From a virus (lineage: Duplodnaviria; Caudoviricetes), in the IMG/VR virus record IMGVR_UViG_3300037424_000687, positions 1 through 31,843 of that record: a stretch of DNA of 31,843 bases. One strand, given 5' to 3'. How positions within the stretch are numbered: position 1 is the first letter of the stretch; every line of letters starts with the position of its first letter. A model generated the notes under the pieces. It was not told the origin of the DNA, ran no database searches, and was given only the letters and a program-made list of their open reading frames with translations. A program made the translations under genes and the position numbers. Below are positions 18,878 to 31,843 of the stretch, piece after piece.

Positions 18878-18913
18878 GTCGCGACTCATAAGCTGTCACG
18901 CTAGCATTATTAA
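18878..18913 (-). repeat. Solitary CRISPR-like repeat unit
   Basis: + strand GTCGCGACTCATAAGCTGTCACGCTAGCATTATTAA, 25/36 ungapped identity to the array repeat, stem retained by compensatory changes. Confidence 0.75.
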
Positions 18914-19044: not shown

Positions 19045-19335
19045 ATGGGAACCAGACGATGCAAGCGCTGTTTATTAGAACTACCAGAATCGGAATTCGA
19101 TACACATCACAAAGATAAAACACTTCGATCAACGTGTAGAAAATGTCGCACGCCGTCAACCGACAAGACCACAAAGACGTGTCACGTATGCCGTTCGGAA
19201 CTTTCCATGACTCGATTTGCGATCAACCGCACATCCAGCGACGGACATCAAGATATGTGTAAAATGTGCAGATCTAGATATTACCAATCTAAGAAAGATA
19301 AAAATAAAGATGTACAAATCGATATCACAGGCTGA
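19045..19335 (+). CDS. Double zinc-finger protein
   Basis: CKRC...CRKC and CHVC...CKMC; resembles Zn modules of phage HNH-associated proteins but no HNH core seen. Confidence 0.7.
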   Translation: MGTRRCKRCLLELPESEFDTHHKDKTLRSTCRKCRTPSTDKTTKTCHVCRSELSMTRFAINRTSSDGHQDMCKMCRSRYYQSKKDKNKDVQIDITG

Positions 19336-19873
19336 ATTCGCTAAGAAAATAGGCATAACCGCGTCATCGCTACGCAAATACATAGCAAATGACGATATTG
19401 GAGTAGACAGAGACGAGCGTCCATTCCGTATTTTTCTCGACCATCCGGCAACAATAAAGTTTCTGAATAAGCGCGAAGTCATGCCCGATGGCGATCAGGA
19501 AGCGATGGCCGAAGACATCAATAAGCGTTTATACGAAATTCAATTAGATGAGCTTCCCAACGTTCCCGATCTCGTTCTAAAACGTGTAAAGATTCTGAAT
19601 GATATTCGTAAAACAAAGCTTCAAACCGATGCTATGCGCAAGGTACTGGTTGCCCGTAAACACGTTGAGATGTTTTTTAATCAACTTATATCAATTGATA
19701 ACTCAATATTAAAAACACTTGGGCAATCGCTATCAGTAAACATCGCTTCGACTCTAGGAACAACTGATAGTGAAAAGATAATCGCAATACAGACACTCAT
19801 AGATGATGAAATATATAAAGCCCTAAAGCTCCGGCATGATAAAATCATTGCGTATCTGGAGCGTCTAAAATGA
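19310..19873 (+). CDS. terS: Terminase small subunit (Nu1-like HTH)
   Basis: ISQAEFAKKIGITASSLRKYI helix-turn-helix followed by coiled coil; overlaps terL start. Start moved to ATG 19310. Confidence 0.75.
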   Translation: MYKSISQAEFAKKIGITASSLRKYIANDDIGVDRDERPFRIFLDHPATIKFLNKREVMPDGDQEAMAEDINKRLYEIQLDELPNVPDLVLKRVKILNDIRKTKLQTDAMRKVLVARKHVEMFFNQLISIDNSILKTLGQSLSVNIASTLGTTDSEKIIAIQTLIDDEIYKALKLRHDKIIAYLERLK

Positions 19874-21786
19874 CACTTCGCGATCCGGATATAGAGTTTC
19901 TAAAACACATAGCTGAATCAGAGCGTTTAGATCCACCAATGAAATCGATTGTTGATTTCATTGAGGCTAGACGTATTATGCCTAGTGGTGCTCCAAAACC
20001 CGGACCGTTCAAGTTTTCTTGGACGCCATACCTTCGCGAGATGCAAGAGTGTCTATCTCCAACTAGTCCAATACAAGAGATAGCGGTTATGAAATCCGCA
20101 CAACTTGGCTTTACTGAGGTATTGCTAAATACAATAGGTTTCTACATTGCCGAGTGTTCTAGTAATATTCTATACGTTTCATCAACCGGTGATCTGTTAG
20201 AGCGTTTCTCGGCTGAAAAACTAGAGCCGATGATCGATTCCCTCGGCATACGTAAGCTATTCATAGCTCCAATCAATACCGACGATACGGAATCTATGAC
20301 CCGGCGCGGTGGTGATAAGGTACTGCTAAAACACTATCCAGGTGGAACACTCGCGCTTGCATCGCTGAATTCATTAGCTTCATTACGGTCTGCTAGCGTA
20401 CGCATCCTATTGCTAGATGAAATCGATGGCGTGAAGTTTACAAGTCCAGAGGGTTCGGCTACCAATGTGGCTAAGGCACGTACCGACGCATATGGACATT
20501 TACGAAAAATAGTATACGTATCAACGCCAACGGTAAACAATACAAGCTTGATCGCGAGATTATACGAGCGTGGTGACCAGCGTAAATATTTCATACCATG
20601 TGCGCATTGCGGAGAATTTATTGAACTACACATGCGCAATCTAAAACGAGTAGACGGACAAGCTGTTTACTTCTGTGATAAATGCGGAGCGGCAATCGAA
20701 GAATATCAAAAAAAGAGCATGGAATCAAACGGAGAATGGCGAGCTACTGTAATATCCAAACAGGGACCACTATATAGAAGCTACCACATGAATAGCCTAT
20801 ATTCGCCAACGTTATCATGGGACCAAATCTTACGAGAATACGATACGGCAAAAGAGGAAGGCGAAGAATCGATGAGAGCGTTCATCAATCTTCGTAGAGG
20901 TGAGCCATTCCGCGAAACAGGGGAACGACCTAGAATAGATAAAGTAATTTCTATGCGTGGCACTCGCCCCGAAAAAGAAGTTCCCGAGTTTATACTATAT
21001 AACACCATGTCCGTAGATGTTCAATCGGGCGGAAAGGATACGGACTCTAGACTATGTATAAACGTAGTAGGCCATGGTAGTAAAATGAGAAAAGCGATAT
21101 TGAAATACCATGAAATAGTAGGAGCTATCGACAATCCGTACGAAGGCGCATGGAAAGAATTCTACGATATGGCTTCGGGAGGTGAATACAATTATTCACG
21201 CCGATCGGACGGACTAACATTTCCCATTCAACTTGCGGCTATAGACTCGGGAGATGGAAATCTAACCGGCGTTGTATTTGATTTTTGTAAGCGACTCGGA
21301 CCGTCGGTATTTCCGCTGAAAGGCTTTGCTAAGTTAGGTAACACTAGAGTAAAAAAATACATGTGGGTAACTCAATCCAATGCAGCAACTAGTCAACGTA
21401 ATAAACTAAACACTAACGTTGACGCGAGTAAAGAACGTTATCTTCAAATCAATACCACATATTATAAAAATGCTATTTATAATCAGTTACAGGTTCGATA
21501 TGAGGATAACGCTGAATTTCAAAAGTACGGGTTCATAGAGTTCAATAAAGACCTGCATGACAACTATTTCAAGATGCTAGTTGCAGAAGAAAAAAACCGT
21601 GAAGGCGCGTTTATAAATCCTTCCGGCAAGCGAAATGAATCGCTGGATTGCCTAGTCTACAACTTCGCCCTTGCCGATTTCTGGCTCGAAACCAAAGCAG
21701 TCGAGAGAGCGCAATCTATAAAAGTCGTTCTAATGGAGCTCCACAAACATCGTCGCGTAGCTTGCGACTTACAGGATGTAGCATGA
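19870..21786 (+). CDS. terL: Terminase large subunit, lambda GpA family
   Basis: TPYLREM, MKSAQLGFTE, LLLDEID, VSTPT, GDQRKYFIPCAHC, SVDVQ, AIDSG, RNESLDCLVY. Confidence 0.95.
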   Translation: MTLRDPDIEFLKHIAESERLDPPMKSIVDFIEARRIMPSGAPKPGPFKFSWTPYLREMQECLSPTSPIQEIAVMKSAQLGFTEVLLNTIGFYIAECSSNILYVSSTGDLLERFSAEKLEPMIDSLGIRKLFIAPINTDDTESMTRRGGDKVLLKHYPGGTLALASLNSLASLRSASVRILLLDEIDGVKFTSPEGSATNVAKARTDAYGHLRKIVYVSTPTVNNTSLIARLYERGDQRKYFIPCAHCGEFIELHMRNLKRVDGQAVYFCDKCGAAIEEYQKKSMESNGEWRATVISKQGPLYRSYHMNSLYSPTLSWDQILREYDTAKEEGEESMRAFINLRRGEPFRETGERPRIDKVISMRGTRPEKEVPEFILYNTMSVDVQSGGKDTDSRLCINVVGHGSKMRKAILKYHEIVGAIDNPYEGAWKEFYDMASGGEYNYSRRSDGLTFPIQLAAIDSGDGNLTGVVFDFCKRLGPSVFPLKGFAKLGNTRVKKYMWVTQSNAATSQRNKLNTNVDASKERYLQINTTYYKNAIYNQLQVRYEDNAEFQKYGFIEFNKDLHDNYFKMLVAEEKNREGAFINPSGKRNESLDCLVYNFALADFWLETKAVERAQSIKVVLMELHKHRRVACDLQDVA

Positions 21787-22448
21787 TAAAAATAGATACC
21801 TCGGAATGGAAAAAATACGGTACGTTACTAAAGAGTTTAGAAAAAAAAGTACCATCGGGAATATCAAAAATGCTGAATGACATGGCGTTCGGTACGCGTA
21901 ACACCGCGATTGAAGGAATCGAAAACACCATGACGATACGAGCAAAACAGTTTGTCTATTCTCGAATACAAGTTACAAAGGCTACCGTGGCATCACAACA
22001 GTCGATAGTTGGATCGGTAGCAACCAAAAACTTTAGCGGATTTGGCGAACAGGAAGAAGGCGGAATCTCAAAAATACTAAAGAAACGGTTGATAAGAAAA
22101 GAAGCTCGTGGCGGAGATATGAAACGAAAAGTCATCAGATCCAATAGGCTGTCACCTTACAATCAACTAGAACTAGCCACGTCGCTTGGTATGATTCGTA
22201 GCTTTAGCCGCAAGGGATATCGTAAGCCGTTTATAATTAACTATCCCGGTGAGGATACGATAGAGCCGGGTTTATATAAACTAGTAGGACGTAGAGATAA
22301 ACAAAAACTCGTACAGCTTCAATCGTTCGTTCATCCCACAAAAGCCAAAGGCGACCCGTGGATGAAACCCGCACCTGCTAAGTTTTTCGCACGCTGGAAT
22401 ATAAACAAAGCGTGGTTTATAAATTGGGGAAGATACATAAAGAAATAA
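21783..22448 (+). CDS. Basic neck/tail completion protein (gpZ-like)
   Basis: Likely start MIKIDTSEW at 21783 (ATGA overlap with terL); KMLNDMAF and PWMKPA motifs. Confidence 0.55.
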   Translation: MIKIDTSEWKKYGTLLKSLEKKVPSGISKMLNDMAFGTRNTAIEGIENTMTIRAKQFVYSRIQVTKATVASQQSIVGSVATKNFSGFGEQEEGGISKILKKRLIRKEARGGDMKRKVIRSNRLSPYNQLELATSLGMIRSFSRKGYRKPFIINYPGEDTIEPGLYKLVGRRDKQKLVQLQSFVHPTKAKGDPWMKPAPAKFFARWNINKAWFINWGRYIKK

Positions 22449-22514
22449 TATTATAGATAAATATATTTATAATATTATTTTATAGTTGCGTTCTTATTTT
22501 TACGTATCGTCCAC

Positions 22515-22574
22515 TGACCATATGTGACGATACGTTGCACTACGTGACGATATATTGCACTACGTGACCATATG
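22515..22574. repeat. Six tandem 10-bp units (TGACCATATG / TGACGATACG / TTGCACTACG variants)
   Basis: Read directly; exact 10-bp period. Confidence 0.85.
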
Positions 22575-22619
22575 TATATGGTGAGTGTTCCATTTTAGTG
22601 TGCAATTTATATCACACCT

Positions 22620-22678
22620 TGCGAGAAACGGGGGTCGCGACCGTCCTCCCTTCCTTTCGTACAGTGATGAAAGGACCC
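22620..22678 (-). other. Candidate cos site (cosQ/cosN-like)
   Basis: Minus strand GGGTCCTTTC...GGGAGGACGGTCGCGACCCCCGTTTCTCGC resembles lambda GGGTCCTTTC...GGGCGGCGACCTCGCGGGTTTTCGC; the phage has a GpA-type terminase. Confidence 0.55.
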
Positions 22679-22702
22679 ACACACCATTCGTTCAGTACTA
22701 TT

Positions 22703-22732
22703 TGACCATATGTGACCATACGTTGCACTATG
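22703..22732. repeat. Second block of the same 10-bp units (3 copies)
   Basis: TGACCATATG TGACCATACG TTGCACTATG. Confidence 0.8.
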
Positions 22733-22843
22733 TAACGACGCGCGATAAAGCCACGGTCAAATCATACGATTGTTATATTTATTTCATCTATTATTTATAA
22801 TAGCTATTTGCCAGCGTGCCTACGGATGTGGGATCAACTTCCT

Positions 22844-23131
22844 GTCCCAACTCATAAGCCGTTTAGACATGCGGTCAAGTTGCAACTCATAAGCCGTTGT
22901 CCTGGCATTGTTGGCCGACATTGACGCGATATTCGCGGAGTCGAGAATAGATGTGACAACTCATAAGCCGTTGTCCTGGCATTGTTAGATACGAAAGCTC
23001 TTCATAGCCCCGATCAATACCGAAGTGACAACTCATAAGCCGTTGTCCTGGCATTGTTAGAATAAGACTATCAATAGTGGGATCACGCACGGGATGTGAC
23101 AACTCATAAGCCGTTGTCCTGGCATTGTTAG
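22844..23131 (-). CRISPR. cas-less CRISPR mini-array: 3 identical, 1 degenerate and 1 partial 36-bp repeats; 3 full spacers
   Basis: + strand repeat GTGACAACTCATAAGCCGTTGTCCTGGCATTGTTAG at 22953, 23025, 23096; 3-mismatch copy at 22879; 20-bp partial at 22844. Unique spacers 22915-22952 (38 bp), 22989-23024 (36 bp), 23061-23095 (35 bp). Strand inferred from the degenerate end and hairpin position. Confidence 0.93.
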
Positions 23132-23535
23132 TCTTTTCCCCATTGATTGTTAGCGATAAACATCGCTCTACGTTCGTTAGCGATTTTGATAGCGTGCTCT
23201 TCATCCATCGCTAGCATTCGCGTATACATCATATTGTTTTCGAAAATAGTTTTCTTGTCGTTGCTTTGTATACGCTCAAACGATATTTTTTCGCAAAGCA
23301 AATAATCTACATCTCTATCCATTTTTACTTCATATGGAAACATGTCTTTAGGCATATCCGGCACATCTTTATCAATATCCCATTCATTAACTGTATAGTC
23401 ACCGGACTCAATTCCATCTTCTTGGTTATCGTCATTATACCTACAGTATTTCTTTGCTTTTTCTTCTGTTGAAAATACAGCACTTATTGCGTAATCGCTG
23501 TAACAACCAGTTGTTACTATATATACTTTATCCAT
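23128..23535 (-). CDS. Phage hypothetical protein
   Basis: KVYIVTTGCYSDYAISAVFSTEEKA is a common phage N-terminal motif; stop codon lies inside the first repeat. Confidence 0.75.
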   Translation of the reverse strand: MDKVYIVTTGCYSDYAISAVFSTEEKAKKYCRYNDDNQEDGIESGDYTVNEWDIDKDVPDMPKDMFPYEVKMDRDVDYLLCEKISFERIQSNDKKTIFENNMMYTRMLAMDEEHAIKIANERRAMFIANNQWGKD

Positions 23536-28546: not shown

Positions 28547-28773
28547 AAGAGTATCAAAAACAAATTGAAGAGTACCGCTCCGTGTGTGCTGGTACTCTTG
28601 ATACTCTTCTTTCTACTTATATATATATAAGTGAAACTACAAATAAGAGAGTATAATAATATCAAGGACTTATAATAAGAATTAAAGGGGTATTTAGAAA
28701 TGGTATAAAGGTATAACTCATGAAGAGTATCAAGGATATCAAGAGTACCAGCACACACGGAGCGGTACTCTTC
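28547..28773. other. Candidate replication origin
   Basis: Perfect 37-bp inverted repeat (28567-28603 / 28737-28773), several AAGAGTA(C/T)C iteron-like units and an AT-rich core, just downstream of the primase-helicase. Confidence 0.65.
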
Positions 28774-28799
28774 TTTTTTAATTTTTCCCATATCGGCTA

Positions 28800-31289: not shown

Positions 31290-31843
31290 TTAATCCAATA
31301 CCTTTAGTTTTCTGACACGAATTTTTGCATCCATGGTAGGAAGTCCAGCAAAACAAATATCTTCAGGCTGCACTTCAACACGTAAACAAATCAAATCATG
31401 ATTTGCATCACACATACCTAACCATTCCGGTCTGTATGGAGGTTTTACGACGTGTAAACCTACAGAGCACTGAATATCATTTGTTTCGGACAGCGGCTCT
31501 TCTATGATATCACCCTGATTGTATGATATGGCACTTCCGCCGTCGAAATTTGGAGATTTTCTATCTTTTGTAACCCATTTCCAAAATATTTGTTTTCCTT
31601 GAGAAATGTAATAGTCGAGATATATTTTGTTTATATCAATTGAATTGATATCGTTACCGAGCGTCACCCCGTCACCGAGCTTCACCCAATTACCGAGCGT
31701 CACCCCGTCACCGAGCTTCACCTCGTCACCGAGCTTCACCCAATTACCGAGCGTAACCCCGTCACCGAGCTTCACCCCGTCACCGAGCTTCACCCCGTCA
31801 CCGAGCTTCACCCCGTCACCGAGCTTCACCCAATTACCGAGCG
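31290..31843 (-). CDS. Hexapeptide-repeat (left-handed beta-helix-like) protein, 5' end outside window
   Basis: Repeated V(K/T)LG(D/N)(G/W/E) followed by a phage domain with QCSVGLHV...KIRVRKLKVL. Confidence 0.8.
   Translation of the reverse strand, partial: LGNWVKLGDGVKLGDGVKLGDGVKLGDGVTLGNWVKLGDEVKLGDGVTLGNWVKLGDGVTLGNDINSIDINKIYLDYYISQGKQIFWKWVTKDRKSPNFDGGSAISYNQGDIIEEPLSETNDIQCSVGLHVVKPPYRPEWLGMCDANHDLICLRVEVQPEDICFAGLPTMDAKIRVRKLKVLD
31656..31843 (-). repeat. 18-bp tandem coding repeat, at least 10 copies
   Basis: ACCGAGC(T/G)TCACCC(CGTC/AATT) units running to the window end. Confidence 0.95.

Follow-up and report, generated by a model that had tools for sequence, protein, structure and literature searches.

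Viral mini-arrays, short CRISPR arrays without cas genes, are known from inter-virus conflict, as described for SPV1 and SPV2 (PMC6858448), modelled in PMC7099407 and reviewed in PMC11656645. In many cases their spacers are very similar to sequence of the carrier itself (PMC7099407). A variant of such an array is described here from virus record IMGVR_UViG_3300037424_000687. The whole record, 31,843 nt long with a completeness estimate of 47%, is referred to as the window. It comes from a contractile-tailed phage in which a sheath, a baseplate, a portal and a gpA-type terminase are present. The array is a short, cas-less one in a viral genome, its repeats are of type V-M as judged by their architecture, and the second of its three spacers (spacer 2) matches the phage's own terL, the gene of the terminase large subunit, at 31 of 36 positions. 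Spacer 2 probably derives from the terL of a sister phage and would guide a Cas12m-like protein to block the packaging gene of that rival, the carrier itself likely being spared.

The window array is similar to the SPV1/SPV2 arrays in that it is short and cas-less, lies near its target (~2.7 kb from the targeted terL region) and has a spacer resembling an orthologous self locus altered by point changes (five mismatches, three of them in the first 18 nt). By itself, the finding of a near-self spacer in the mini-array of a phage matches the expected pattern (PMC6858448, PMC7099407) and is unsurprising. The window array differs from the described SPV1/SPV2 type in having three spacers, a V-M-like repeat and a predicted blocking effector. 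A host array with a matching repeat was not found in genome_contigs (0 matches with two patterns, exact core and loose), the nearest repeats being those next to Cas12m-like genes, on contigs that are from phages or unclassified. Reciprocal targeting, a feature of the SPV1/SPV2 type, was not seen for the window phage.

The described type V-M systems (MsCas12m, TfCas12m, GoCas12m and MmCas12m; PMC11013384, PMC10442227) share with the loci analysed here the repeat architecture, a homologous effector, the order of gene then array, and the lack of cas1. According to PMC11013384, Cas12m orthologues bind without cutting and protect against phages, and orthologues with a D-E-D triad also bound without cutting. 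The clade described below differs from these in its length (~470-540 amino acids, aa), in a D-K-D triad that is not among the triads given in PMC10442227, in its occurrence on phage records, and in a protospacer adjacent motif (PAM) that is possibly TC; for the window array the effector is off the contig. Since cas12m is absent next to the array, the array is not classed as a complete V-M system. MvCas12m of myxophage MV-1 (10.64898/2026.09.14.751636) is likewise a phage-encoded V-M protein without adaptation genes, but it is 610 aa long and D-E-D, and its targets are described as not identified. Compared with that description rather than with the sequence, the clade here is shorter and D-K-D, and has identifiable satellite-like targets and, presumably, a sister phage as target. 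Cas12r of the Thermus Lalka phages (10.64898/2026.04.20.719267) is also a compact phage type V protein with spacers against integrative satellite-like elements; as described it needs an active RuvC, whereas the clade here has Lys at the position of the catalytic Glu. In the MV-1 preprint of September 2026, Cas12m on a phage is still presented as the first case; V-M in some prophages is mentioned in a review. Neither a D-K-D clade nor V-M mini-arrays were found in the literature searched or in the triad list of PMC10442227, though the 134-protein table of PMC11013384 and the preprint supplements may hold members. What is new is thus the V-M-like variant of the mini-array and a compact D-K-D Cas12m-like clade of ~58 proteins on phage records.

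The terL-matching spacer and its origin

The alignment of spacer 2 with the self site (coordinates in Table 1) is ungapped and in frame. All five mismatches lie at codon third positions (6, 12, 21, 24 and 36 on the plus strand); four are synonymous and one is a Glu/Asp difference. The match and its third-position pattern, first reported in the first-pass annotation, were borne out by realignment and by shuffling: the best of 1,000 shuffled spacers reached 24/36 against the window, and the binomial expectation of the observed match is 4e-9. The best window matches of spacers 1 and 3 (24/35 and 21/37) are inside the shuffle range. The 36-nt repeats flanking spacer 2 (22953-22988 and 23025-23060) are identical to each other and to the first repeat (23096-23131); the repeat at 22879-22914 differs by three changes.

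The arrays of homologous loci lie right behind Cas12m-like genes, in the sense direction, and the minus strand is therefore the CRISPR RNA (crRNA) strand in the window, as the annotation had proposed. Plus-strand orientation was dropped; the fold, the homologous arrays and the covariation of the stem all favour minus. Read in this orientation, the self mismatches fall at guide positions 1, 13, 16, 25 and 31 and the 5' flank of the self site is CGTATC, which agrees with the positions and the TATC flank given earlier.

The codon pattern bears directly on the origin of the spacer. Over the 12 codons compared, the proportion of synonymous differences (pS) is 0.46 and that of nonsynonymous differences (pN) 0.04, with a Jukes-Cantor synonymous divergence (dS) of ~0.72. 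Under random decay, five substitutions would all fall at third positions with p = 0.002, and would change no more than one amino acid with p = 0.013. Spacer and terL therefore diverged as protein-coding DNA. The spacer peptide agrees with this terL in 11 of 12 residues, compared with 7-8 of 12 for the nearest database terLs (69% identical overall; comparison set of 37 proteins at E <= 1e-50), so the donor is closer than any terL found. A sister-phage origin is further favoured because mismatches 25 and 31 lie beyond the region read by the guide, where escape brings no gain. Spacer 2 was likely copied, as far as these comparisons indicate, from the terL of a diverged, unsampled sister phage. 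Of the earlier proposal of an origin in a closely related phage, the related terL stands by the codon pattern, and a near-identical strain does not, since dS is ~0.7. The perfect sister-terL match that the proposal anticipated did not appear among GenBank phages, where the spacer gave 16 records, all of them partial, at E 0.4 or worse, and attributable to chance; very near genomes may be missing from the searched sets. We infer competition with a sister phage.

The repeat family and its Cas12m-like effectors

The window repeat consists of a 5' AATGC motif, a 6-bp stem, a 9-nt loop and an AC tail, as does the Ms repeat. Over 15 chosen repeats, one of which supplied the structure that was scored, the stem is 96.7% paired and shows two-sided changes in five of six pairs, far above slid controls. 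The exact repeat core had no match in viral_contigs or genome_contigs. A looser motif gave 27 stretches in viral_contigs, of which 22 were dropped as chance at 13-16 mismatches to the repeat; the other five, from two records, represent a true relative 8 nt away. Here the array directly follows a 498-aa open reading frame (ORF) whose sole PDB match at E <= 0.001 is Cas12m 23vw. Thirteen loci matched in metagenome_contigs, seven of them with repeats that differ from the window's by no more than 1-2 nt. In one of the homologous loci, the 1.7-kb unclassified contig L028, a repeat 1 nt off the window's adjoins a ~500-aa Cas12m-like gene, the product of which is 53% identical to the 498-aa protein of the viral records. 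A cas12m gene stands beside the array in homologous loci L028, L037 and L041-L043. The window array had no match in plasmids, and the L042 array had none in phages. Rfam gave nothing at the gathering score, and one match was judged to be chance.

Sixty homologues are retrieved at E <= 1e-20 with the L028 protein, and 58 of these form a tight clade. The RuvC triad D240, K368 and D466 is invariant in 49/49 aligned proteins (the alignment covers 49 of the 60 homologues), with K368 aligning to the position of the catalytic Glu in both the Ms and the Tf protein. Against the PDB, the clade profile scores best with Cas12m 23vw (E 2e-38), by sequence the TfCas12m of PMC11013384, and next with UnCas12m4a (E 1.6e-12). 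The only plasmid match, an Allomeiothermus silvanus protein (hhalign 99.9% to the clade, with Lys368 opposite its catalytic Glu), is the MsCas12m locus by organism and repeat, its array repeat being the Ms repeat of PMC11013384. By these comparisons the putative cognate effector is homologous to Cas12m. With Lys in place of the RuvC catalytic Glu in all 49 aligned proteins, the clade is predicted to lack nuclease activity and probably acts by blocking, not by cutting.

An effector relative is encoded at 31 viral loci, six of which (four distinct) belong to the clade at 38-53% identity; five clade loci were scanned, and in all of them the array stands directly behind the gene. The 25 further viral loci (L047-L071) encode distant relatives with 21-28% identity, and behind most of those scanned stands an array with a different repeat. 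By these counts, V-M-like systems on phages seem to be frequent. The clade occurs on several phage records, without a claim that it is restricted to phages. Cas1 (PF01867) was found in none of five records, the window and four clade-bearing ones, of which two are at least 90% complete; the positive control was detected in 7 of 14 genomes.

Spacers of related arrays appear to be directed against other mobile elements, to which the near-self spacer is an exception. In phage G004, three of four full-length spacers match the satellite-like contigs L033 and L029, which carry integrase and AlpA, at 36/36, 33/36 and 29/39. When the full-length spacers of G001-G004 were compared with the records that carry them, 0 of 32 reached a 74% match (six shorter units were left aside), and a self-match is therefore not a built-in feature. 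The first spacer of L036 and the spacer L037:10032-10067, which belong to different repeat subtypes, start with the same 10 nt, against 5 nt for the next best of 1,081 pairs, which suggests one and the same AlpA 3' site as their target. A spacer of L034 also encodes an AlpA-like peptide.

The 43-kb G004 record (L086, L088) contains 15 repeat units: four in an array behind the cas gene, two in an array 29 kb off, two as a close pair, and seven solitary. Some of the solitary units are inside ORFs, and two are followed, after a purine-rich stretch, by an ATG ~20 nt away. In L028, a full repeat copy (L028:1418-1453) lies in frame in the zinc-finger region of the Cas12m-like gene. The 11 extra residues that result are found only in P0040 among the 49 aligned proteins, which suggests an ectopic repeat insertion. 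P0041, the nearest relative of the L028 protein, lacks this insertion.

Proposed mechanism and alternatives

The proposed mechanism, the likeliest of those considered, begins with read-through transcription of the array from the minus-strand gene run. No minus-strand promoter consensus is present within 22300-23400; the likely supplier of this transcription is the DUF7336 ORF, which stands where homologous loci have the Cas12m-like gene. The transcript would be processed and loaded by a Cas12m-like effector, as for MsCas12m. Its source would be either a co-resident element or the half of the genome that the record lacks; a remote effector has a precedent in G004, where 29 kb separate a second array and the cas gene. 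In co-infected or lysogenised cells, spacer 2 would set a transcription roadblock in the sister's terL and, extending the results of PMC11013384, lower the virion output of the sister. The carrier would be spared through mismatches 1, 13 and 16 and a probable PAM change (Glu139 to Asp, converting TTC/CTC to ATC).

Self-avoidance by the carrier is likely on several grounds. GoCas12m is reported to read ~18 bp (PMC11013384), and mismatches 1, 13 and 16 fall within a readout of this length, position 1 being in the seed. For PmCas12m, single mismatches up to 12 nt from the PAM abolished activity in a human-cell reporter (10.64898/2026.03.26.714355). At residue 139, the five closest terL relatives, from three clusters, all have Glu, giving a TTC or CTC flank, and Asp is found in this phage alone. 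The sole amino-acid difference inside the match falls on guide position 1. This change and Asp139 sit where escape would act. The 3-nt PAMs in the literature consulted are TTN, YTN, YTTS and TTV, with CCN-type targets for Tf.

A number of points weigh against the sister-directed block with a spared carrier. The dS value rests on only 12 codons, and the donor did not emerge from searches aimed at it: degenerate back-translation of the spacer peptide gave no match in viral_contigs, 0/17 and 1/169 candidate stretches were confirmed as close terL loci (the one at 26% identity), and 0/31 short terL fragments were confirmed as donor. The targets of spacers 1 and 3 were likewise not found, with 0 database matches and no local match. 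No cas gene is present among the window's 44 ORFs (PHROGs), nor any match to a Cas12m-like protein or Cas1, in a record that is 47% complete. The loss of cutting is foreseen from sequence alone. The Ms targets (Table S8) are 22 nt long, a length suggesting a two-letter PAM. The target flanks of G004 are GTC (at the perfect match), TTC and TTC; TC fits all three, and fits the self flank ATC too. These flanks all come from G004, and none from arrays with window-type repeats. The L028/P0041 lineage, with the repeat closest to the window's, deviates from the consensus of the clade at two motifs that we take to be PAM-contacting, and the G004 PAM data may transfer poorly to effectors of this type. 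The PAM evidence is thus conflicting, and self-sparing therefore rests mainly on the seed mismatch. The annotation had named efficient cutting of the self allele as the result that would speak against self-avoidance. As a test this probably does not fit, the likely cognate effector being D-K-D and predicted to bind, not cut.

Tolerant self-silencing, which the annotation had raised as an alternative, is unlikely. Here the guide is kept since a non-cutting effector weakly binds the self site and damps terL, for instance in packaging timing or lysogeny maintenance. Binding to self by an effector predicted not to cut would not be lethal, pairing extends over 15 of the first 18 guide positions, and Cas12m is described as repressing from within coding regions (PMC11013384). 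The self flank also retains the TC common to the three G004 target flanks, but this TC is explained by the Asp/Glu codon, and the published PAMs have a pyrimidine at -3. The mismatch at seed position 1, with those at 13 and 16, stands against silencing, seed mismatches having abolished PmCas12m activity. So do the absence of self-matches among the 32 spacers of the four related phage records and the third-position periodicity, which a regulatory guide does not need as far as position 31.

A wider scheme, in which mobile elements form a network of CRISPR interference, is also unlikely. Phages would encode or borrow the nuclease-dead D-K-D effector against sisters and satellites, and targets would answer with solitary-repeat decoys; the guide would both silence the sister's terminase and tune the carrier's own packaging gene. 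Its working both ways is conceivable because the effector is predicted to be non-cutting and the self site still has a TC PAM.

It is quite unlikely that the array is an inert relic that arrived by recombination or lost its cas gene, the guide never being loaded and the match having no present function. The contig is without a Cas12m-like gene or cas1, a DUF7336 ORF takes the cas gene's place, and the trailer end is decayed, all as a relic would have it. Against this, the record is just 47% complete, and G004, whose genome has a cas gene, also has a second array far from it. The three identical repeats fold into the conserved stem, and compensatory changes have preserved the solitary repeat of the window, an indication that the phage encounters effectors of this kind.

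Very unlikely is a spacer taken from the lineage's own ancestor, with terL having since drifted or escaped. Constraint on the terL protein would also give third-position differences, and the sole residue change (position 1) and the derived Asp139 are at the seed and the PAM, as escape predicts. However, terL would need ~0.7 synonymous substitutions per site while the spacer and three repeats stayed unchanged, and mismatches 25 and 31, beyond the ~18-bp readout, carry no escape benefit. Random decay of a self copy is rejected on the codon pattern, and a chance match on the shuffles.

The reading of spacer 2 as a sister-derived guide has several implications. With a binding-only effector, near-self spacers would be cheaper than with a nuclease, and the locus allows a direct test of viral tolerance for imperfect self-targeting guides. 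From one repeat family come an effector, a satellite that is targeted and a candidate RNA decoy, all matched to one another. The ~500-aa effector, naturally non-cutting by prediction, could serve as a small programmable repressor.

Solitary repeats and other features of the locus

Single off-array repeat-like units in phages are known as Racr, shown to inhibit I-C, I-E, I-F and V-A systems (PMC10651486). The window has one unit of this kind (Table 1), 4 kb from the array, which like Racr is single, off-array and retained in structure. It differs from the G004-type repeat by seven changes (29/36) and from the window's own array repeat by 11, and takes the repeat fold on the minus strand only, the stem being kept by compensatory changes. 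It is of V-M type, a term occurring 0 times in the main text of PMC10651486. Unlike Racr as described, it mimics the repeat of another phage, and like units are present in satellite-like contigs targeted by that phage. The targeted contigs L033 and L029 have two solitary G004-type units each (including L033:6957-6992 and L029:3732-3767), and the satellite-like L031, L032 and L035 have one window-type solitary unit each. By analogy with PMC10651486, the simplest reading is that solitary units act as decoy RNAs against the effectors of other elements. The G004 effector, its L033 and L029 targets and their solitary repeats would then be a candidate trio of effector, target and decoy. A pure decoy model leaves unexplained the many units in G004 itself, some of them in or just before ORFs.

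Table 1. Coordinates of the array, its self site and neighbouring features in the window
Feature	Position	Strand	Remarks
Solitary repeat unit, compensated 6-bp stem	18878..18913	-	Ends 15 nt before the ATG heading the minus-strand head-gene run
terL, gpA-type terminase large subunit, 638 aa	19870..21786	+	phrog_15 E 1.5e-144; PF05876 and PF20454
Self site matching spacer 2 at 31/36	20248..20283	-	terL codons 127-138
PAM-position flank ATC	20284..20286	-	terL codon 139 (Asp), reverse-complemented
Truncated remnant of a repeat at the trailer end, with loop and 3' stem half	22844..22863	-	Covariance-model match 22849-22863, E 0.012
CRISPR mini-array, four 36-nt type V-M-like repeats and three spacers, without adjacent cas gene	22879..23131	-	
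Spacer 3, 38 nt	22915..22952	-	Target not found
Spacer 2, terL-matching guide, 36 nt	22989..23024	-	
Spacer 1, 35 nt	23061..23095	-	Target not found
DUF7336 ORF	23128..23535	-	Stop codon inside first repeat

A trans-activating crRNA role for the truncated remnant at the trailer end was dropped, its orientation being the same as that of the repeats. Beside the trailer, an AT-rich gap between convergent gene runs contains imperfect direct repeats of ~20-36 nt and a GC hairpin (22515-22738), which are possible origin or regulatory sites. A putative terS, terL and a minor tail gene (19217-22448, plus strand) are opposite in strand to the other head and tail genes, and this run diverges from them where the solitary repeat sits. 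A 47-nt inverted repeat with arms 91% complementary and 123 nt apart is located at the end of the primase-helicase gene (28562-28778).

Repeats are also present at both contig ends, 129-nt repeats in a tail-fibre gene at 1-305 and 18-nt hexapeptide repeats at 31618-31833, and these likely broke the assembly. The tail-fibre repeats are common to the window phage and phage G004 at 50-68% amino-acid identity, a hint that the two phages may have related hosts.
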